From positions 1 through 64,000 of the forward strand of contig JANQPB010000026.1 of NCBI GenBank assembly GCA_028285495.1: a stretch of 64,000 nucleotides of DNA. The letters run 5' to 3'. Both the position numbers and the translations under genes were made by a program. This document shows positions 4,397 to 24,048 of this stretch, one piece after another. Origin of the DNA: Acidimicrobiales bacterium. GTDB lineage: Bacteria; Actinomycetota; Acidimicrobiia; Acidimicrobiales; SZUA-35. How positions within the stretch are numbered: position 1 is the stretch's first letter; every line of letters begins with the position of its first letter. The notes beneath the pieces are model-generated. The model did not search any database. It had not been told where the DNA came from and saw only the letters and a list, made by a program, of their open reading frames with translations.

Positions 4397-4578
4397 CACC
4401 GGTACCGCTCCGTTCTCCCGGGTTCGGCCGGGATTCGTCGATGGGGTCGCCCGTCCGAGCGACGTTAGCGAGCGCCGGCACCGGCGCGCCAAGCCGCAGC
4501 GAGCGCCACGACGGCCATCGGCTGACCATCCGAGACCACCGCCTGGCGGGCCGGGAACCGGCGATGGGGGGCCAGATG

Positions 4579-4630
4579 AGCGCCACCCGAGCTCCAGGTG
4601 GGCTCCAGGTGAGCTCCAGGTGAGCTCCAG
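4579..4630. repeat. short tandem repeat, ~11-bp unit (R)GCTCCAGGTG x4
   Basis: Direct tandem copies gagctccaggtg/ggctccaggtg seen in intergenic region upstream of aqpZ. Confidence 0.6.
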
Positions 4631-4729
4631 GTGAGATGGTAACGATCCGCCTGGCCGATGGGTCTATGCAGTCGACGGAGGATCGATCGCAGCGAGAGTC
4701 GGTCGGTCTCTGACCAAAGGGGAAATGCG

Positions 4730-5539
4730 ATGCGTAACGCAAAGCTGTTCGCCGCCGAATTGATCGGGACCATGATCCTGATGCTCGGCGGCCCGGGCAC
4801 GGCCGTGCTGGTACCCGGATTCGACGGCAAGCTGACCATGGTGGCACTCGGATTCGGGTTCGCCCTCCTGATCGCGGCCTATGCCGTCGGCCCGATCTCC
4901 GGCTGCCACATCAATCCGGCGGTGACCCTCGGCATGGCCGTGATGCGAAAGATCGAGATGGCGCTCGTACCCATCTACTGGGCCGCCCAGATCCTCGGCG
5001 CCATCCTCGGTGGCTTCATCATCTGGATCATCGCCCGGGGCCAGGCCGGCGGGTTCGACGCCGACCCGGCCAACTTCGCCACCAACCTCTGGGGTGAGGA
5101 GAACGGGTTCTTCAGCTTCGGGGCGATGGCGGTCACCGAGATCGTCCTGACGGCGGTGCTGATGTTCGTGGTGCTCAGCACCACCTCGAAGCGGTTCCCG
5201 GCGGCGATGGGCGGCCTGGCCGTCGGCATCACGCTCGCCCTCATCCACTTCATCAGCATCCCGGTCGACAACACCTCGGTGAACCCGGCCAGGAGCCTCG
5301 GCATGGCCGTGTTCGCCGGCGGTGACGCGATGACCCAGCTGTGGGCCTTCATCGTGTTCCCGCTGATCGGTGCGGTCGTCGGCGTCCTGCTGTGGCTGGC
5401 GGTCGACGACGCCAGCATCGAGGACACGGTGCTCGGCCAGAGCGACGCCCTCGTCGAGGTCCGTGACGCTGCGGCCGGTGCCGCCGGTGCCGTCGGCGGG
5501 GCGGCCGAGCGGGCCACCGGGGCCACCGATCGGAGCTGA
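4730..5539 (+). CDS. aqpZ: aquaporin Z (MIP family water channel)
   Basis: Two NPA boxes (HINPAVT, NPARS), six TM pattern, MRNAKLFAAELIGT N-terminus typical of AqpZ. Confidence 0.9.
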   Translation: MRNAKLFAAELIGTMILMLGGPGTAVLVPGFDGKLTMVALGFGFALLIAAYAVGPISGCHINPAVTLGMAVMRKIEMALVPIYWAAQILGAILGGFIIWIIARGQAGGFDADPANFATNLWGEENGFFSFGAMAVTEIVLTAVLMFVVLSTTSKRFPAAMGGLAVGITLALIHFISIPVDNTSVNPARSLGMAVFAGGDAMTQLWAFIVFPLIGAVVGVLLWLAVDDASIEDTVLGQSDALVEVRDAAAGAAGAVGGAAERATGATDRS

Positions 5540-5718
5540 CGGCAACCGACTCGCCGGCCCTTGCGCCGCCGACATGCGGGGTCCGACCAGGCGGCCGGCG
5601 CGGCCGCGGTCGGGCTCCGCTGTGCGTCTGAGCTCCGACATCGACCGGCCCGGCACCCGTCCGGCGACGGTCCCGTATTGGCCCCTTCGGTCGCCGGATG
5701 CCGCAGTAGCCTGGCCTC

Positions 5719-12647: not shown

Positions 12648-12805
12648 CCTCGCACGGTTGCGCCATCACCACGCCGGGTGCGACCGCCACGCCATCAGAT
12701 GACAAACGTGTAACACCTGGGCGGTTCACCGGTCCCCGCACCCGACTCGGGCGTCTAAGAAGGTGAGTGGGGCCTCGGCCCGGTGGCGAGCACGGAGGTG
12801 AGGGC

Positions 12806-13969
12806 ATGGGGATCGGGAACCGGGCGACCGCCCGGGCGGTCGACGGATCCCTGGCCGCGCTGGTGGCCGCCGGGTTGGCAGCGACCCTGGCCGTGGCGCT
12901 GGCCGCCTGTGGCGGGGACGCCGGCCCGGCGCCGGACGCCGGCCCGGACGACACCATCGCCTCCGCCGACACCGCAGCCGAGACCACGGCGCCGGACCCG
13001 ACCGGCGAGACGGCCGGCGCGGCCACCGACGACCAGGACGACTCCGACGACGGCGGCGACCGCGGCGAGCGGCCAGACGGGACGCCGACCACCACACGAC
13101 CGACGACGACGACCACCGCGCCGGAACCCGAGAACCTGCTCGACCCCGTCGGCCCCGGCGACGGCGGCGATGACGTCGTCGCCCTGCAGACCCGCCTCGA
13201 CGAGCTCGGCGTCGCCCCCGGCCCGGCCGACGGTGACTACGGTCGCCGCACCGAGCGGGCGGTCCGGGTGTTCCAGGAACTGGTCGACCTCCGGCCGACC
13301 GGGCGGGCCGACGCCAGGACGATGCGGGAGCTGGCCACCTACACCTACGACGGGCTCCTGCTCGTGGCCGGCGACGAGGGTGACGACGTCGAGGAGCTCC
13401 AGGAGCGGCTCGCCGGCGGACCTTTCGACCCCGGCCGGATCGATGGCGTGTACGGCGGCGCCACCGTCGCCGCGGTGTGGGCGCTCGAGAAGCTGGCCGA
13501 GATCCCGATCGACGGTGACTGGGGCCCGGCGGACGAGCTGGCGTGGCGAAAGCTGATGGACGGCGAGGTCGGCGGTCCCGAACGCGAGAACGACGAGCGC
13601 TGGGTCGAGGTCGACCTGTCCCAGCAGCTGATGAAGGTCTACGACCCGGGCGAGACGATCCCGGTGCTGGTCAGCCACGTGTCGAGCGGGAGCGGCATCC
13701 CGTGGGAGAACGAGGACCACAGCGGAAGCTCGATCACCCCGAAGGGCGACTTCCACATCAACCGCCGGATCAGCGGCTGGCGTGAGTCGAGCCTCGACAT
13801 CGGTCGGCTCTACAACCCGCTCTACTTCAACGGCGGGATCGCGTTCCACGGGGCGACGTCGGTGCCGCTCTACCCGGCCAGCCACGGCTGCGTTCGGGTC
13901 CCGATGCACATCGCCGAGTACCTCCCGGACGAGCTGCCGAACGGGACCGCCGTCCACGTGCTGGCCTGA
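12806..13969 (+). CDS. L,D-transpeptidase lipoprotein with tandem peptidoglycan-binding (PG_binding_1) domains
   Basis: Lipobox LAAC after signal peptide; two DDVxxLQxRL..GxYG..T..AVxxFQ repeats; YkuD catalytic motif SHGCVRV. Confidence 0.85.
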   Translation: MGIGNRATARAVDGSLAALVAAGLAATLAVALAACGGDAGPAPDAGPDDTIASADTAAETTAPDPTGETAGAATDDQDDSDDGGDRGERPDGTPTTTRPTTTTTAPEPENLLDPVGPGDGGDDVVALQTRLDELGVAPGPADGDYGRRTERAVRVFQELVDLRPTGRADARTMRELATYTYDGLLLVAGDEGDDVEELQERLAGGPFDPGRIDGVYGGATVAAVWALEKLAEIPIDGDWGPADELAWRKLMDGEVGGPERENDERWVEVDLSQQLMKVYDPGETIPVLVSHVSSGSGIPWENEDHSGSSITPKGDFHINRRISGWRESSLDIGRLYNPLYFNGGIAFHGATSVPLYPASHGCVRVPMHIAEYLPDELPNGTAVHVLA

Positions 13970-14086
13970 CCACCCGACCTCGTGCGGCCGGGCCAGGCTC
14001 CCGACCCACTGGGCCGAGGTGAGACCGGGCCAGGCGACCGCGTCACCGCCGGCCGGTGGCAGCGCGGTCGCCGGGCGGGTCCTACC

Positions 14087-14986
14087 ATGCCGGACATGAC
14101 GACCCGCATCGAGATCGGGACCTTCGGGGTCTGGACCAGCCTGCTCGACCTGCAACCGACCGCCCGGGTCCGGCAGCTGGTCCGGGAGCTCGACGAGATG
14201 GGCTGGGGCTGCCTGTGGCGGCCGGAGTCGACCGGGCGCGACCCGATGGTGTCGGCTGCGCTGTGGCTCGACGCCTGTCCCCGGATGGCGGTGGCGACGG
14301 GGATCGCCCAGACCTATGCCCGCCACCCGCTGACCACGATGGCCGCCACCCGCACGCTCGACGAGGCCTTCCCCGGACGGTTCCTGCTCGGTCTCGGGGT
14401 CAGCCATGCCCCGCTGGTCGAGGGGGTCCGCGGGCTCGACTATTCAACCCCACTGGCCGACATGGCGGCCCATCTCGATGCCATGGACGCTGCGCCGTTC
14501 ACCGGCCTCGCCCCGGAGGGCCGACCACCGCGGATCCTGGCCGCCCTCGGCCCGAAGATGCTGGCCCTGGCGGCCGAGAAGGCCGACGGCGCCCACCCGT
14601 ACTTCACGACCCCTGACCACACGGCGATGGCCAGGGACATCCTGGGGCCGGACAAGTTCCTGGCCCCGGAGCACATGGTGGTGCTCGACGCCGACGCCGA
14701 CCGGGCCCGCCGGGTGGCCCGGGCCAACATGGCCCGCTACCTGCAACTCCCGAACTACACCCGCAACCTCGAGCGGATCGGCTTCACCCGCGACGACATC
14801 GAGTCGGTCAGCGACCGCCTGGTCGACGCCATCGTGCTGTGGGGCGACGTCGAGTCGATCGTGCCCCGACTCCGTCAGCACCTGGAGGCCGGCGCGGATC
14901 ACGTCTGCGTCCAGGCCCTGGTCGAGGACCCGTCGCAACCCCCGGTCGACGACTGGCGCCGCCTGGCCGAGGCGCTGCTCGGGTAG
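14087..14986 (+). CDS. LLM-class (luciferase-like) F420-dependent oxidoreductase
   Basis: TIM-barrel LLM hallmarks (IGTFGVW, LGLGVSH, PRILAALGPKML), TIGR03620-like size. Confidence 0.8.
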   Translation: MPDMTTRIEIGTFGVWTSLLDLQPTARVRQLVRELDEMGWGCLWRPESTGRDPMVSAALWLDACPRMAVATGIAQTYARHPLTTMAATRTLDEAFPGRFLLGLGVSHAPLVEGVRGLDYSTPLADMAAHLDAMDAAPFTGLAPEGRPPRILAALGPKMLALAAEKADGAHPYFTTPDHTAMARDILGPDKFLAPEHMVVLDADADRARRVARANMARYLQLPNYTRNLERIGFTRDDIESVSDRLVDAIVLWGDVESIVPRLRQHLEAGADHVCVQALVEDPSQPPVDDWRRLAEALLG

Positions 14987-19039: not shown

Positions 19040-19271
19040 TGCCCTGACCACCGAAGGTCGCCCGCTCGGGTTGCCCGCCTGGGCAGGCCGAGGGGCACCG
19101 CCAGGGGAACCGAAGTCCGCCTGCCCGCTCCTGGCCCGGCGCCGCCGGTGCGGTCAGGCTGAGACCGCAGTGCGTGAGCGAATCCCGTCCTCGGTCGAGT
19201 CGGCCCCCGAGCTCGAGACGCCCCTCCGGGCGGAGGTTGGCACCGCGGCGGCCGCGTCGGCGGCGCCAGGG

Positions 19272-21677
19272 ACCATGGCGGGGCGACCCCCACCGGTCGT
19301 CGACGACAGCGCGGCCGATCTGCTCGACGGCCAGCAGCGGGCCACCGCCTTCCTGGCCTCGTTGGAGCAGGCGGCCAGAGGCGTGATCGGCCCGACCGGC
19401 ATCCCGGGCCAGATCATGCTGGCCCAGCAGGTGTCGGAGCTGTCGGCGCTGCCGGCCAGCCGGCTGCTCGCGCAGCTGGCCCAGGCCGTGCCGGAAGCCA
19501 CCAGCGCCGGATCGGCGGCCGGCCTCCGGAACTCGGCCGTTGCCCGATTGGGCCGGCAGGTCCGAACCTGGCACGAGGCCGAGCGGTCCCAATCGTTGCT
19601 GCCTCCCCTCCTGAAGCCGGTCGCCGGCCAGCCGCCGGAACCCGGGGTCGGGGCGACCGGCGAGAAGCCGTCCGAGGCCGGCGCCGTCGCTCGGGAGCTC
19701 GGCTCGGGCCGGCCACTGGGATCGGGTCAGGGGGCGCGCTTCCGGACCGCCCTGGGAACCGACGTGAGCGGGGTACGGATCCACACCGACAGCCGGGCCG
19801 CAGCGCTGGCCGGCCGGTTGGGGGCTCGGGCCTTCACCGTCGGCGACGATGTCGCCTTCGCCCCCGGTCAGTTCCGGCCGGGCGAACCGGTCGGCGACGC
19901 CCTCCTGGCCCACGAGCTGGCCCACGTGGCCCAGCAGCGCTCGGCCGGCGCCGCCGTGGCCGCCAAGAGCACGACCAGCGGTGGGGTGGCATCGCTGGAG
20001 GCCGACGCCGACCAGACCGCCGTCGAGGCGACGCTCTCGCTGTGGGGCGAGGCCCTTGGATGGGCCGGGCGCGTGGCCCGCCGCACCGGTCCGCGGCTGC
20101 GCAGCGGGCTGCAGCTCCAGCGCTGCACCTGCAGCCCGACGCCGACACCGACGCCGGTACCGAAACGGGTCGACCTGCACGGCGGGGCCCAGGTACCAGA
20201 CGCCACCACCCAGCAGGCGATCCTCAACACCCTCATGCCCGGTCGCCTCGCCCCGGCGGCGGCACCGGCCGCCGGGGGCCCGGCGGCGGCCCCCGTCCAG
20301 CTGCCGTGGAAGGGGGCGGCCGACCCGGTGAGCGGCACCGTGTCGCCGGCGGCTGCGGCATCGAGAGCGGCGCTGAAGACCGCACTGACCAACGCCGTGC
20401 TGGCCGAGCTGAACAGCGTCAACACCGACATGTTGGGCGAGGAGGCCGCCTACGCCGCCGCCCGCATGCCGACCTCGAGCTTCGAGGGGGCGGGCGCCGC
20501 AGCCAAGCAGGTCGTCGACACCGTGTACGGCAGCTACGCCAGCGCGGCCGCACTCAGCGCCGCCGATCAGACCCACCGGTCGAGCTTCGCCTTCACCGCA
20601 TCGGGAGCGAACCCCAACCTCCTCGACGCCTACGACCCGGCCGACCGGATCGCCGTCAACCAGGCCATCAGTGCCGAGGCGGTCATCGAGTGGATCCTCG
20701 GCCGGCCGCCGTCCCAGACGGCGATGGCGGCCGAGCGCTGCGCTCCCGCCCGCGGCAACGAGGCCGAGGTGTGGCTCAACGCCGAGGTCGTCACCCCGTT
20801 GGCCAACGGTCCCCGCAAGGCCGACTTCGAGCGCTACGACCGCTTCGGCTTCGCCATCACCAGCGACGACGCCGGCGTCAGCCGGGTGGTCATCCCCACC
20901 ACCCGCGACACCAGTCGGCCCTCGGTCTCCGAGGGCGAGAAGGCGGCGAAGTGGGCGAACTTCGAGACGCTCATCCACGAGTACATCCACGTGCTCGAGC
21001 ACCCCAACTTCACCGAGGGGAAGGCCCAGGCCAGCGACATCATGACCGAGGGCTTCACCGAGTGGTTGACCAAGCCGGCGGTCGAGGCCGCCTACCGGCG
21101 CCTGTCGAGCGACGTCGCCCTGCGCCGCACGGTGGAGGGGACCCCGGCCGGCGACCCCGACCCGCCGAACCCGGTGGGGAACTTCCTCGGTCCGACCTAC
21201 AGCTATGTCGCCAGCTACGCCGACCAGGCCAACGCCATCGCGTCGCTGGTCCCCCACGTCACCGATGCCGGGCTCAAGGCGGTCTACTTCCTCGGCCACG
21301 TCGAGTACCTCGGGCTCGACCCGACCGGGAACGCGGCCGCCCCGGCCACCACCCGGGGTGAGGTCGACACACCGTCTGGGGTGACGACCGTGGCCCAGCT
21401 GAGCGCCCTCACGGGCGTGAGCGAGGCCGACCTCCGGGCCAGCAACCCGGGGCTCCCCGCCTCGGGATCGCCGCTGCCGGCGACGCTGACCGTTCCCGGC
21501 TTCACCCAGCACGTCGTGATCGAGCACACGAGCGGCGCCACCACCAAGACCGAGACCATCGCCGACGTGGCCCGCCAGCACGGCCTCACCGAGGCCCAGA
21601 TCCGGGCCTACAACCCGGGGCTGGTCGGCGCCTCGCTGACCGTCGGCCAGAAGGTCCTGATCCGGAGCGCGCCATGA
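19272..21677 (+). CDS. multidomain zincin-like protein: DUF4157 domain (HELAH) + second HExxH domain (HEYIH) + two C-terminal LysM domains
   Basis: RFRTALGTDVSGVRIHTD..AFTVGDDVAF..LLAHELAHVAQQ (DUF4157 signature); LIHEYIHVLEHPNF; LysM repeats VTTVAQLSALTGVSEADLRASNPGL and ETIADVARQHGLTEAQIRAYNPGL..GQKVLI; no N-terminal signal peptide. Confidence 0.8.
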   Translation, partial: TMAGRPPPVVDDSAADLLDGQQRATAFLASLEQAARGVIGPTGIPGQIMLAQQVSELSALPASRLLAQLAQAVPEATSAGSAAGLRNSAVARLGRQVRTWHEAERSQSLLPPLLKPVAGQPPEPGVGATGEKPSEAGAVARELGSGRPLGSGQGARFRTALGTDVSGVRIHTDSRAAALAGRLGARAFTVGDDVAFAPGQFRPGEPVGDALLAHELAHVAQQRSAGAAVAAKSTTSGGVASLEADADQTAVEATLSLWGEALGWAGRVARRTGPRLRSGLQLQRCTCSPTPTPTPVPKRVDLHGGAQVPDATTQQAILNTLMPGRLAPAAAPAAGGPAAAPVQLPWKGAADPVSGTVSPAAAASRAALKTALTNAVLAELNSVNTDMLGEEAAYAAARMPTSSFEGAGAAAKQVVDTVYGSYASAAALSAADQTHRSSFAFTASGANPNLLDAYDPADRIAVNQAISAEAVIEWILGRPPSQTAMAAERCAPARGNEAEVWLNAEVVTPLANGPRKADFERYDRFGFAITSDDAGVSRVVIPTTRDTSRPSVSEGEKAAKWANFETLIHEYIHVLEHPNFTEGKAQASDIMTEGFTEWLTKPAVEAAYRRLSSDVALRRTVEGTPAGDPDPPNPVGNFLGPTYSYVASYADQANAIASLVPHVTDAGLKAVYFLGHVEYLGLDPTGNAAAPATTRGEVDTPSGVTTVAQLSALTGVSEADLRASNPGLPASGSPLPATLTVPGFTQHVVIEHTSGATTKTETIADVARQHGLTEAQIRAYNPGLVGASLTVGQKVLIRSAP

Positions 21678-22174
21678 CCGAGCACGACCCGACCGCAGAC
21701 GCCGTCCTGGCCCAGGTGGCCGAGGGCCAGCTCCGAGCCTTCGCCGGTCTCCTGGCCGACCACGACCGGGCGGCCATGCAGCGGGTTTTCGATCCGGGCG
21801 GCGACGAGGCACCGGAGACGGCCGGCCTGCTCGACGGGATCGCCGTGTGGCGACGGGCGTTCCCACCGTGCCCGCTCGCGCCCAACGGCCTCACCGTCGC
21901 CTTCGACGAAGCGGGCCTGGCCGTTCACGTGACCGTGGCGGAGCCCGAGCTGACCGAGCCGGCCGACGACCAGCTGGGTCCGCCGGCGCGGATCCTCGAC
22001 TCCGGGCTCTCGTCGTGGACCGACCTGCTGGTGTGGCCCGACCGGGGCGTCCTGCTCCACCGGCACCGGTACCGCCCGGTCGGAGGTCGGCTCGACCTCG
22101 TCCGGGCCATGGAGATCGACCAGCTGCTCGCGTCGTCGGTGGCGACGGTCCGCGTCACCCGGAGGCGGCGATGA
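21674..22174 (+). CDS. hypothetical soluble protein, translationally coupled (ATGA) to upstream zincin/LysM gene
   Basis: Start ATG overlaps stop of 19272..21677; stop overlaps next start; acidic 166-aa protein without TM. Confidence 0.6.
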   Translation: MTEHDPTADAVLAQVAEGQLRAFAGLLADHDRAAMQRVFDPGGDEAPETAGLLDGIAVWRRAFPPCPLAPNGLTVAFDEAGLAVHVTVAEPELTEPADDQLGPPARILDSGLSSWTDLLVWPDRGVLLHRHRYRPVGGRLDLVRAMEIDQLLASSVATVRVTRRRR

Positions 22175-22962
22175 GCCAGACGACCCGTCGGCGGGCGACG
22201 GAGCGGGCGGCCGAGAGGCCCGCCGCCGGGGGCCGAACCGGGATCGCCGCCGGTCTCGACCGCCGCCTCGACTCGTTCGTGGCCGCCTCGGCCCGGTTCG
22301 ACCGGCCGTTTCGGCGCTTCGGCGCGGCCGGCGTCGCGGTCGGGGCCGTGCTCGGGCTGGCGGTCGTCGGTGCGACGAACGGCTCGCTGGCGGCTGCGGC
22401 GCTCATCCTGGTCGTGGTCGGGCCGGTGACGTACGGGTTGGGCCTGGCCACGGCGATCGTCCTCGACCGGGAGACGCTGATCTTCCTCCATCACGCCCTG
22501 GCCGTGGTCGGCGTCGCCGTGGCCGCGGCGGCGACAACCGGCGCCGAGCCCGGTCCCCTGCTGGCCGGGACCGGCGTTGCGCTGATGGCCGGCTCCTCGA
22601 TCGGTCGCCTCGGCTGCCTCGCCGTCGGCTGCTGCCACGGCCGACCGGCTCGCCACGGCGTGCGCTACCCGATGGCGCTGGTGGCCGACGGGTTCCCGGC
22701 CCCACTTGTCGACCTGCGGCTCCGGCCCGTGCAGCTGCTCGACGCCGCCCTGACCGCAGCGCTCGCCGTCACCGGCGGCCTGCTGGCCATCAGCGGTCGG
22801 CCGGCGACCGCAGCGGTGGTCATGGCCGCCGGGTACGGGCTTGGCCGCATCGCCCTCCAGCTCCAGCGCGGCGATCGGGGCCGCCGACTGCTCGGCCTCG
22901 ACCACGTCCAGTGGACGGTCCTGGCCATCGCCGCCTGGCTCGGCCCACTCGTCGTCTGGTGA
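22171..22962 (+). CDS. polytopic membrane protein, possibly prolipoprotein diacylglyceryl transferase (Lgt)-like
   Basis: ATGA overlap with preceding gene; 6-7 TM helices; motif SSIGRLGCLAVGCCHG resembling Lgt G-R-x-G-N/C-F-x-N-G signature. Confidence 0.55.
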   Translation: MSQTTRRRATERAAERPAAGGRTGIAAGLDRRLDSFVAASARFDRPFRRFGAAGVAVGAVLGLAVVGATNGSLAAAALILVVVGPVTYGLGLATAIVLDRETLIFLHHALAVVGVAVAAAATTGAEPGPLLAGTGVALMAGSSIGRLGCLAVGCCHGRPARHGVRYPMALVADGFPAPLVDLRLRPVQLLDAALTAALAVTGGLLAISGRPATAAVVMAAGYGLGRIALQLQRGDRGRRLLGLDHVQWTVLAIAAWLGPLVVW

Positions 22963-22992: not shown

Positions 22993-24048
22993 TCAGGCGT
23001 CTTCGACCAGCGCCCGCAGCTTGCCCATGGTCTCGACCTCGTCCTGGCCGGGGGCCAGGTTGACGTTGAGCACGCTCACGCCGGCCTCCTTCCAGACGCC
23101 GAGGCGCTCCTTCACGTGCGACTCGGGGCCGACCAGGCTCGATCGCTCCAGGAAGTCCTTCGGCACCTTGGCCGCGGCCTCGGCCTTGTGCCCGTCGAGG
23201 TAGAGGTCCTGGATCTCGATGGCCTCCTCCTCGTAGCCGTACTTCTTGGCGATCGTGTTGTAGAAGTTCTTGTCCCGGGCCCCCATGCCACCCCAGTAGA
23301 GGGCCGTGGCCGGCCTCGACAGGTCGTGGACCTTGTCGGCCGCCTCGCCGACGAACTCGTCGCCGATGGCGACCATGGCCCCGGCGGCGATGTCGAGCCG
23401 GCCGAGCGACTCGTCCCGCTTGGCCTGACCGGCCTTCAGGTCGTCGCCCCAGACCCGCTGGAACTCGTCTGGCACGAAGAACACCGGCAGCCAGCCGTCG
23501 GCCGAGCGGGCGGTGGCCTTGACCGACAGCGGCATCAGCGACGCCCAGTAGATCGGCACCTCGCTGCGGACCGGGTGGTTGATCAGCTTCAGCGGCTTGC
23601 CGAGGCCGGTGCCCTCGCCATCGGGCAGGGGCAGCTTGACGGTCTTGCCGTCGTACACGAGGGGCTCGCGCCGCAGCGTCGCACGGACGACGTCGATGTA
23701 CTCGGAGATCCTGGCCATCGGCTTCTCGTATGGCACGCCGTGGAAGCCCTCGACCACCTGGGGGCCGCTGGCCCCGAGGCCGAGGATGAAGCGGCCGTTC
23801 GACACCATGTCGAGCCCGGCCGCGGTCTGGCCGATGGCCGCCGCGGTGCGCGAGTAGACGTTGAGGATCCCGGTGCCGAGCTCGATCCGCTCGGTCCTGG
23901 CCGCCAGGTACCCGAGCTGGCTGACGGCGTCCCAGCTGTAGGCCTCGGCCACCCAGGCCACGTCGAGCCCGGCCTGCTCCATCTCGACCACACGGTCGAC
24001 GGCTGCGGCGAAGTCGCCGGCGTAGTTGATCGTCGTTCCCAGCTTCAT
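22993..24048 (-). CDS. LLM-class F420-dependent oxidoreductase
   Basis: Full-length luciferase-like monooxygenase fold, MKLGTTINYAG.., GLGASGPQVVEGFHG. Confidence 0.9.
   Translation of the reverse strand: MKLGTTINYAGDFAAAVDRVVEMEQAGLDVAWVAEAYSWDAVSQLGYLAARTERIELGTGILNVYSRTAAAIGQTAAGLDMVSNGRFILGLGASGPQVVEGFHGVPYEKPMARISEYIDVVRATLRREPLVYDGKTVKLPLPDGEGTGLGKPLKLINHPVRSEVPIYWASLMPLSVKATARSADGWLPVFFVPDEFQRVWGDDLKAGQAKRDESLGRLDIAAGAMVAIGDEFVGEAADKVHDLSRPATALYWGGMGARDKNFYNTIAKKYGYEEEAIEIQDLYLDGHKAEAAAKVPKDFLERSSLVGPESHVKERLGVWKEAGVSVLNVNLAPGQDEVETMGKLRALVEDA

Follow-up and report, generated by a model that had tools for sequence, protein, structure and literature searches.

Which function could unite a soluble protein with two metallopeptidase motifs and a peptidoglycan-binding LysM domain, a small acidic protein and a membrane protein resembling Lgt, if their three genes overlap each other? 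This question is raised by a locus in a stretch of 64,000 nucleotides (positions 1 to 64,000 of contig JANQPB010000026.1, assembly GCA_028285495.1) from an Acidimicrobiales bacterium, which as a whole is termed the window in the following. The three genes are located on the + strand at 19275..21677 (gene 1), 21674..22174 (gene 2) and 22171..22962 (gene 3). With a probability of about 60%, the trio is an orphan copy of an effector cassette as normally found with contractile injection systems (CIS), which resemble phage tails; in this cassette gene 2 is tied to the type of effector encoded by gene 1 and gene 3 is coupled to its DUF4157 domain.

All three open reading frames (ORFs) are coding and intact. 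In this window with a G+C-content of ~73% the G+C fraction at codon position 3 (GC3) amounts to 0.93 for gene 1 and to 0.91 for both gene 2 and gene 3, which is comparable to the neighbouring genes. At both junctions the stop codon overlaps the following ATG in an ATGA (21674-21677 and 22171-22174). This supports the trio of overlapping + strand ORFs described in the original prediction, with the correction that gene 1 does not start at 19272, as its ATG is found at 19275. A public record of the protein (P0001, 835 aa; numbers with P denote proteins and those with L loci) starts with a GTG at 19170, 35 codons upstream of this ATG, and describes otherwise the same protein. The start of gene 3 at 22171 appears sound, as an alternative upstream extension exhibits a GC3 of only 0.53.

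Gene 1 encodes, judging from its GC3 and its homologues, a DUF4157-type cargo or effector protein of 800 aa from the ATG, and its full-length homologues (P0002-P0006) share 36-46% identity with it. A conserved region ahead of the DUF4157 domain, delimited by BLASTP alignments, begins at VVDD..GQQR and spans aa 8-147 (19296..19715, +); many DUF4157 proteins align with gene 1 over aa 8-285. This region is preceded by 7 residues (ATG at 19275) or 42 residues (GTG at 19170), compared to 80-90 residues in the homologues; in CIS cargo, a disordered loading sequence would be expected at the N-terminus. No hydrophobic N-terminal signal is visible from any candidate start, which fits with the previously assumed lack of a signal peptide. 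The following DUF4157/eCIS_core zincin core (aa 148-225; 19716..19949, +) matches PF13699 with an E-value of 1.4e-25 (89.7 bits at a cut-off of 22 bits) and had been recognized correctly. It includes the first metal site, HELAH (aa 213-217; 19911-19925, +), and further downstream lies a LEADAD helix (19995-20012, +), which likely contributes the third ligand. H213, E214, H217, Q220 and Q221 are invariant in the homologues, all of which share the order HELAHVxQQ and then an LExDAD helix. With HELAHVAQQ and LEADAD, gene 1 carries the signature of HExxHxxQ and a downstream Glu that defines the PVC-metallopeptidases (PMC3482391). Neither the region ahead of the DUF4157 domain nor the segment behind it, termed junction below, matched any Pfam family.

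The similarity of relatives to gene 1 spans aa 8-290, behind which they carry differing domains such as TGL, Het-C, M35, ART and SH3. In gene 1 itself, this variable part includes a second metallopeptidase-like domain, recognized by an HExxH motif and a Glu (domain 2, aa 315-690; 20217..21344, +). Its metal site HEYIH (aa 568-572; 20976-20990, +) is followed, 20 residues past the second His, by Glu592 within MTEGF (21042-21056, +). In eight homologues this site follows the consensus HEY[IL]HxLxHP with a Glu-Gly 20 residues further on, and the two His, the Glu between them and the Glu-Gly are invariant. The partial homologues P0048 and P0083 also retain both metal sites. The presence of a second HExxH domain and the conservation of both HExxH sites are thereby confirmed. 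The ligand spacing is of the thermolysin type and suggests that domain 2 is gluzincin-like (clan MA(E)). No Pfam family exists for this C-terminal peptidase domain, and a Foldseek search of its predicted model against the PDB gave no significant match. The two C-terminal LysM repeats that had been proposed could be verified only in part. One of them (aa 759-796; 21549..21662, +) passes the Pfam threshold for PF01476 with a match at aa 761-797 (E-value 2.7e-6; 27.7 bits at a cut-off of 20.9 bits). The other (aa 703-727; 21381..21455, +) is a degenerate LysM-like half repeat, which is 48% identical to the true LysM over 23 aa and remains undetected by Pfam even at an E-value of 10. Many relatives (P0008-P0029 and others; L012, L029, L039) carry two DUF4157 domains, the first of which (HELTHVVQQ) has neither an LExDAD helix nor the junction Cys motif described below. 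This first domain is followed by a conserved LIVEDD..GQMRKSxFL, the region that opens gene 1 of the window.

The complete trio occurs in eight distinct loci with differing flanks (the window, L001, L002, L039, L088, L090, L094 and L096), so that its co-conservation in other genomes can be regarded as established. L001 and L002 are full-length orphan trios with unrelated flanks and no CIS genes, and the window cassette is an orphan like these two. The locus of a cyanobacterium (L039) includes three further DUF4157 genes, L088 contains three DUF4157 genes in tandem, the last one being of the gene 1 type, and in L090/L091 the trio is located downstream of an AAA ATPase of the Pvc15 type. In L094/L095 the order is changed to Lgt-like gene, effector, gene 2. 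Lgt-like relatives of gene 3 number at least 421 and occur in Acidobacteriota, Bacteroidota, Chloroflexota, Myxococcota, Actinomycetota, Cyanobacteria and others; the motif scan was based on one genome per species. Among 69 good loci, 52 contain a DUF4157 ORF within 10 kb of the Lgt-like gene. In 48 of them it is a direct neighbour in the same orientation and frequently belongs to an array of two to five. At least 14 of the 69 loci have two or more CIS structural genes in their flanks, a number obtained with gene calls from stop-to-stop ORFs and home-made HMM profiles that detect CIS genes only insensitively. Examples are L004, with the order Pvc16, AAA, DUF4157, small ORF, Lgt-like gene, spike and gp25, and L007 with sheath, tube, Pvc16 and the Lgt-like gene; CIS structural genes are also present at L008 and L053. 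In addition, the two partners are fused in opposite orders in P0076 (DUF4157-TGL-Lgt-like) and P0088 (Lgt-like-DUF4157-SH3), which are independent fusions, both in neighbourhoods with a CIS flavour. Taken together, adjacency, permuted gene order and fusions show that the Lgt-like family is coupled to DUF4157 genes with the motif ...SGLxLQRC in at least seven phyla. The rarity and patchiness of the trio, its differing flanks and the CIS context elsewhere rule out a housekeeping role, and the architecture of gene 1 is that of a CIS cargo; the assignment of the DUF4157 protein to effectors is therefore retained. Near the DUF4157-TGL-Lgt fusion, locus L092 contains an isolated ORF of 336 aa (4563-5573) that matches only the C-terminal sheath domain Phage_sheath_1C and is possibly left over from a CIS cluster that was lost. 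Directly upstream of the fusion gene of L092, a GerE/HD regulator is encoded.

The motif named above is found at the boundary between the constant and the variable part of gene 1. In the window protein it reads PRLRSGLQLQRC (aa 273-284; 20091..20126, +), ends in the invariant Cys284 and is followed by the Pro/Thr-rich linker TCSPTPTPTPVP. Nearly all gene 1 relatives exhibit the consensus P[RST]L[RK]SGL[RQKS]LQRC ~70 residues past the DUF4157 HExxH, ~20 variable residues behind the third helix, and continue with a low-complexity linker and then the variable domain. The motif is contained in most of the proteins P0001-P0092 and in 72 of the 119 DUF4157 ORFs near Lgt-like genes, and in proteins with a double DUF4157 it is restricted to the second domain. 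DUF4157 domains lacking the junction Cys still possess the HExxH and the Glu helix. A second sample of 80 metagenomic loci was selected by the DUF4157 core pattern alone, independently of the Lgt-like gene, and was scanned with a regular expression that covers variants such as SGLTLQRC and SGLTISRC. Motif and Lgt-like gene occurred together in 17 loci and were both absent in 58; five loci contained the motif only and none the Lgt-like gene only. The resulting association (17/22 versus 0/58; Fisher p 2.6e-13) has to be read with the restriction that the loci carrying the motif are at the same time those most closely related to the query, so that the loci are not phylogenetically independent. 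The five loci with only the motif are mostly short or cut contigs, and the regular expression did not match any of 114 control windows. These data show that one large subfamily of DUF4157, defined by its junction Cys, is found together with the Lgt-like gene in different phyla, gene orders and fusions. No literature on an LQRC motif was found, and a PDB sequence search with the DUF4157 region yielded nothing useful. The original prediction mentioned neither the junction Cys motif nor the CIS connection, which are the most informative features of this locus.

Gene 3 encodes a polytopic, Lgt-like membrane protein of 263 aa with a pI of 11.4 (22171..22962, +). Its match to PF01790 (LGT), the family of the phosphatidylglycerol:prolipoprotein diacylglyceryl transferase (EC 2.5.1.145), reaches 33 bits at a cut-off of 24.9 bits and comprises profile positions 90-231 of 240 only. 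The NCBIfam equivalog for Lgt yields 28.9 bits, far from its cut-off of 334. A PDB sequence search with gene 3 alone returned nothing useful, and a family profile of the Lgt-like relatives reaches Lgt of E. coli (PDB 5AZB) with an E-value of 9e-6. Seventeen relatives share an invariant GR[LIV]GC[LF]xxGCCHGRPA, and the corresponding motif of the window protein, GRLGCLAVGCCHG (aa 145-157; 22603..22641, +), corresponds in position to the Lgt signature G142RLGNFINGELWG154. The proposed likeness of the 263-aa protein to Lgt is thus justified. In an alignment of 77 family sequences, R146, G148, C149, C154, C155, G157, G163, Y166, P186, Y222, R226 and R233 are invariant and H156 is present in 76. R146, Y222, R226 and R233 align to R143, Y235, R239 and R246 of E. 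coli Lgt, and the family motif YxxxRFxxExxRGD corresponds to Y235/R239/E243/R246. As R146 and R226 are invariant, the essential, phosphatidylglycerol-binding Arg pair R143/R239 of Lgt is kept. From this Arg/Tyr/Glu set and the C-x4-CCH cluster we infer that gene 3 encodes an enzyme rather than a passive anchor. The window protein differs at the E202 equivalent, where it contains Asp in place of Glu. For the C-terminal domain of the longer Lgt-like proteins, no Pfam match was obtained.

The orientation of this family in the membrane is predicted to differ from that of Lgt. In E. coli Lgt, the periplasmic side comprises the head between transmembrane helices (TM) 4 and 5 as well as the signature motif, and the positive face is cytoplasmic (PMC4728403); in the alignment, its loops rich in Lys and Arg are those after TM1, TM3 and TM5. 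For the 77 family sequences, the mean number of Lys plus Arg is 3.0 in the last 20 N-terminal residues, 0.12 in loop 1, 0.71 in loop 2, 0.22 in loop 3, 4.05 in loop 4 (the head), 0.44 in loop 5 and 2.55 in loop 6. The window protein has 12 Arg ahead of its first helix, longer members continue after an eighth helix with RRRR and a soluble domain, and P0076 places 683 soluble residues without a signal before its first helix. Applied to these inverted loop charges, the positive-inside rule predicts that the Lgt-like family is oriented with the N-terminus inside and with its catalytic-type residues near the cytoplasmic face. The reversed charge bias does not agree with the seven helices and the periplasmic active site and head of Lgt. 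Classifying gene 3 as Lgt is not advisable, as it deviates in its signature motif and its predicted orientation and misses the equivalog score. The idea of a dedicated, housekeeping unit for lipoprotein processing loses its basis as well, since gene 3 misses several defining features of Lgt. A role as export partner is unlikely in the sense of Sec, the protein rather being a predicted cytoplasm-facing accessory of DUF4157/CIS loci. Two other assignments were rejected: a specific immunity protein, because the Lgt-like protein stays constant while the effectors vary, and a Tat signal at the N-terminus, because no hydrophobic region follows the RRR.

Eleven weaker matches (L077-L087) represent short proteins (~265-300 aa) with a GR.GC...GCCHG motif from Elusimicrobia and Clostridia. 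A DUF4157 neighbour is present for just one of them, and they appear to form a separate branch. Three of these loci (L077, L082 and L086) contain a conserved upstream protein of ~205 aa with a THGHFDH motif of the metallo-beta-lactamase type. The Cys-variant Lgt family therefore extends beyond its CIS-linked branch and has a second, differing conserved context.

Gene 2 (21674..22174, +) encodes an acidic protein of 166 aa, for which a pI of 5.15 was calculated in agreement with the earlier description, and has no signal peptide. No match was found in Pfam or NCBIfam. The protein belongs to a rare family of 39 representatives, all of ~160 aa, among 1.84 billion cluster representatives; a word-indexed search with the gene 2 alignment retrieved 12 proteins. 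In all eight inspected loci the gene 2 relative is the next gene 3′ of an effector whose C-terminal domain is that of gene 1, and no member of the family was encountered away from a domain-2-type effector in the loci examined. Conversely, L003 and L057 are exceptions in which a domain-2-type effector has no gene 2 homologue. L057 (3215-9982), from the Bacteroidota species Deminuibacter soli, contains two tandem paralogues of the gene 1 type directly upstream of the Lgt-like gene. Lgt-like loci with other effector C-terminal domains have unrelated small ORFs at the position of gene 2, among them one HEAT-repeat protein and two Bacteroidota ORFs with lipoprotein-type signals. Remote homology of these ORFs to gene 2 was considered and dismissed (hhalign probabilities <1%). 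As the small gene changes together with the toxin domain, gene 2 probably encodes a cognate inhibitor or immunity protein that spares the producer from the peptidase, or possibly an effector-specific chaperone. The suspected behaviour as cognate partner is in line with the eight loci, where the small gene always appears to follow a domain-2 effector. Two of the ~39 relatives, P0160 and P0170, exhibit lipoprotein-like N-terminal extensions (..LITLIAC.. and ..FLAVSTGC..), which the others, including the window protein, do not have. These extensions suggest that the family can act on either side of the membrane.

How the three products might act together can be outlined as follows. Gene 1 is built like known cargo, with its N-terminal region, the "releasing" DUF4157 zincin, the conserved junction and a variable effector part composed of the gluzincin-like HExxH+E domain and the peptidoglycan-binding LysM. 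The active face of gene 3 would point to the cytoplasm, where the signal-less cargo is located, and the enzyme would transfer a lipid, probably diacylglyceryl from phosphatidylglycerol, onto the junction Cys284. The DUF4157 zincin would then cleave just before the lipidated Cys in a role similar to that of LspA. The product would be a membrane-tethered or lipid-anchored effector, which may be loaded into a CIS whose genes are located elsewhere in the genome or may act at the membrane. The idea derives from the finding that motif and gene co-occur exclusively, the layout of Leu-x-x-Cys plus linker, the kept phosphatidylglycerol-binding residues and a report that the C-terminal domain of VgrG2b, which carries a DUF4157 annotation, causes a loss of lipoproteins from membranes (PMC6899460). 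This Sec-independent lipidation of the junction Cys from the cytoplasmic side with subsequent DUF4157 cleavage is the mechanism that we prefer, but it is a tentative proposal, and we consider it rather unlikely to hold. Among the proposed roles, we place most confidence in gene 2 neutralizing or chaperoning the effector, less in gene 3 being a cytoplasm-side enzyme and least in the junction Cys being its substrate.

Several observations weigh against the cassette reading and its mechanism. On the side of gene 3, the positions of N146 and E151 of Lgt are occupied by C149 and C154 in 77 of 77 sequences, so that the Lgt signature is not matched, and the variants E151A and E151Q of E. coli Lgt are inactive (PMC4728403). 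At the H103 equivalent, a His is found in only 45-51 of the 77 sequences and a GGL is lacking; the window protein has HH at 107-108. The window protein is also the sole one among the 77 with a Gln (Q230) at the E243 equivalent, where 75 of 77 relatives contain Glu. It ends after the seventh helix and thereby lacks both TM8 and the ~110-aa C-terminal domain of most relatives, so the window copy of gene 3 may be partly decayed. The topology of the family was deduced from charge bias as its sole basis. The junction is not a canonical lipobox, as it contains Arg at -1, Gln at -2 and a basic instead of a hydrophobic upstream segment. Cys284 could equally be the zinc ligand of a cysteine switch or a mere part of an autocleavage site, and the association of motif and Lgt-like gene could reflect the shared ancestry of one DUF4157 subfamily without any relation of enzyme and substrate. 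Gene 2 does not have a signal peptide, although a toxin directed at peptidoglycan normally requires an extracytoplasmic immunity protein. Finally, no homologues of sheath, tube, gp25, spike, Pvc16 or Pvc15 were detected in the 64-kb window with the home-made, insensitive profiles. As no CIS structural gene lies in these 64 kb, the delivery of the window copy by a CIS is hypothetical. A CIS operon within about ten genes, as present next to the relatives L004, L088, L090 and L093, is not found near the window copy.

Some of these observations would be explained differently if the junction were the site of autoproteolytic release by DUF4157, with Cys284 possibly maintaining latency as a cysteine switch, and if the Lgt-like protein left the cargo unmodified and were a membrane dock or scaffold that binds this DUF4157 subfamily through its cytoplasmic loops and C-terminal domain, for example to keep cargo or the CIS at the membrane until loading or firing. 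Membrane tethering factors of the CIS exist in Streptomyces (CisA), and most Lgt-like relatives bear an extra cytoplasmic domain of ~110 aa that would suit a docking role. The position of the motif between constant and variable part would allow it to fold back into the cleft, DUF4157 proteins bind spike and baseplate proteins of CIS, and the PVC-metallopeptidase was predicted to be an autoproteolytic releasing peptidase (Zhang et al., PMC3482391). However, a passive dock needs neither 12 invariant residues on the catalytic cavity of Lgt nor an invariant CCH cluster. The window copy has no C-terminal domain and is nevertheless in frame with a strong codon bias, and the Cys is no general zinc ligand, since DUF4157 domains without it retain the HExxH and the Glu helix. 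We therefore regard the docking role as a doubtful, though serious, alternative to the enzymatic reading.

The absence of CIS genes from the 64 kb, the loss of TM8 and the C-terminal domain together with the unique Q230 in gene 3, and gene 1's N-terminal region, which is shorter than that of its homologues, would also fit with a decaying remnant of a lost CIS cluster, in which gene 3 in particular is truncated and inactivated. The three intact ORFs with ATGA overlaps and a GC3 of 0.91-0.93 like that of their neighbours make this quite improbable, as does the retention of all 12 invariant family residues in the window copy. Other orphan trios (L001 and L002) are full-length, and short Lgt-like forms exist elsewhere (P0132 and P0134). 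Even less probable appears a cassette for lysis and release, in which gene 1 would be an endolysin-like, LysM-targeted peptidoglycan endopeptidase, gene 3 a holin-like or envelope-modifying protein and gene 2 a regulator or antiholin, and which would set free tail-like particles or remodel the producer's cell wall. The combination of LysM with a conserved metallopeptidase domain and the tight translational coupling of a soluble hydrolase to a membrane protein would be expected for such a cassette, and eCIS, the extracellular CIS, are released by cell lysis (PMC8213781). Yet the Lgt-like gene accompanies varied C-terminal domains (TGL, Het-C, M35, SH3 and unknown ones), few of them with LysM, gene 1 has the architecture of a cargo and not of an endolysin, and a protein with seven to eight helices and catalytic-type residues is unlike holins. 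An orphan copy of a CIS-type effector cassette thus remains the preferred explanation for the trio.

The surroundings of the cassette include an S8 subtilase, a Glyoxalase_3 protein, an amidohydrolase, PhoU/LMW-phosphatase and Band_7 proteins, a YkuD L,D-transpeptidase and two luciferase-like monooxygenases. The latter are of the F420/FMN type and flank the cassette with its neighbours, one at each end (13982-14986, +, and 22993-24048, -). A convergent gene starts 31 nt past the end of gene 3. The YkuD protein (12767-13969, +), encoded 5 kb upstream of the cassette, contains two PG_binding_1 domains and is a second peptidoglycan-directed product near the cassette; no link between them was established. 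The large subtilase (15008-~18200, -) possesses a long low-complexity tail rich in Pro, Thr and Gly, and in its region the high G+C-content gives rise to several very long spurious ORFs of up to 1347 aa on both strands.

DUF4157 is the most widespread marker of CIS effectors, and its function has repeatedly been called unknown (PMC8213781; PMC11297309; bioRxiv 2026.05.27.728243). By its junction Cys and its dedicated Lgt-like gene, the cassette opens a testable route to this function. If the Lgt-like protein is indeed an enzyme of the cytoplasmic face, it would be the first protein with an Lgt fold in reversed orientation and would provide the first cytoplasmic lipidation route for bacterial effectors, with a bearing on the engineering of CIS as tools for protein delivery. 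Even if the lipidation idea fails, one large class of CIS/DUF4157 loci gains a new accessory marker in the Lgt-like gene, and the gene 2 family and the domain-2 peptidase represent a new partner family and a new effector family.

In contrast to the original prediction, which did not recognize a described system, the architecture of gene 1 matches known CIS cargo and eCIS toxins (PMC8213781; PMC8894135; PMC11297309), and gene 1 is a further member of the known DUF4157 effectors. According to Geller et al., DUF4157 forms the N-terminus of many eCIS toxins, ahead of their variable toxin parts (PMC8213781). The cargo proteins Cgo1 and Cgo2 of AlgoCIS are built as NTD-DUF4157-CTD, that is, with the DUF4157 domain between an N-terminal and a C-terminal domain, and Cgo1 has a second metalloprotease motif (PMC8894135; bioRxiv 2026.05.27.728243), which is C-terminal as in gene 1. 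A "DUF4157; LysM; Transglut_prok" toxin, EAT14, was among the tested toxins (PMC11297309). Together with Tme and Sle2 of Streptomyces, these proteins share with gene 1 the order of N-terminal region, DUF4157 and variable C-terminal effector, the lack of a Sec signal, frequently tandem paralogues and in some tested cases LysM. They differ from the window copy, which is located outside a CIS cluster and whose C-terminal peptidase does not belong to a Pfam family. In the papers on eCIS and CIS cargo, there is no mention of the junction Cys motif or of partners like the Lgt-like protein and gene 2, and the AlgoCIS supplements contain no Lgt. In the enrichment table of Geller et al. (PMC8213781), LGT is not enriched (two occurrences, odds ratio 0.35). 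In our literature search, no paper was encountered that connects Lgt-like proteins with CIS or DUF4157, and the combination of "eCIS" and "Lgt" gave only unrelated results. The linked Lgt-like family, the junction motif and the gene 2 family are hence apparently undescribed.

E. coli Lgt (5AZB; PF01790), one of the closest known systems, shares with the family the membrane core TM3-TM7 and the equivalents of R143, E202, Y235, R239, E243 and R246. Unlike in Lgt, the signature GRLGNFINGELWG is changed to GRxGCxxxGCCHG (N146 to C and E151 to C), the head domain is cut to ~31 Arg-rich residues, the charge bias of the loops is inverted and most members contain TM8 and a cytoplasmic domain in addition. 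The maturation of lipoproteins by Lgt and then LspA is a functional analogy only, which consists of an Lgt-type transferase, a peptidase and a Leu-x-x-Cys with a flexible linker. There, the precursors are Sec or Tat substrates that are processed at the outer face and have a small residue at -1, whereas here the signal-less protein carries a basic motif and the putative enzyme is predicted to be oriented inwards. Another parallel is VgrG2b/PA0261 of the H2 type VI secretion system (H2-T6SS) of P. aeruginosa, a gluzincin annotated as DUF4157 with an adjacent small immunity gene, for which a link to lipoprotein linkers near the lipidated Cys was found experimentally (PMC6899460). In that system, however, DUF4157 is a toxin acting in the periplasm from the C-terminus of the spike, the immunity protein is exported and no Lgt-like partner has been reported. 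The cassette also corresponds in its logic to the polymorphic toxins described by Zhang et al. 2012, with a constant releasing peptidase, a variable toxin and a small downstream gene that varies with the toxin. Yet many toxins of the PVC type have no adjacent immunity genes according to these authors, whereas the unit described here combines a cognate small gene with a conserved, putative membrane enzyme.

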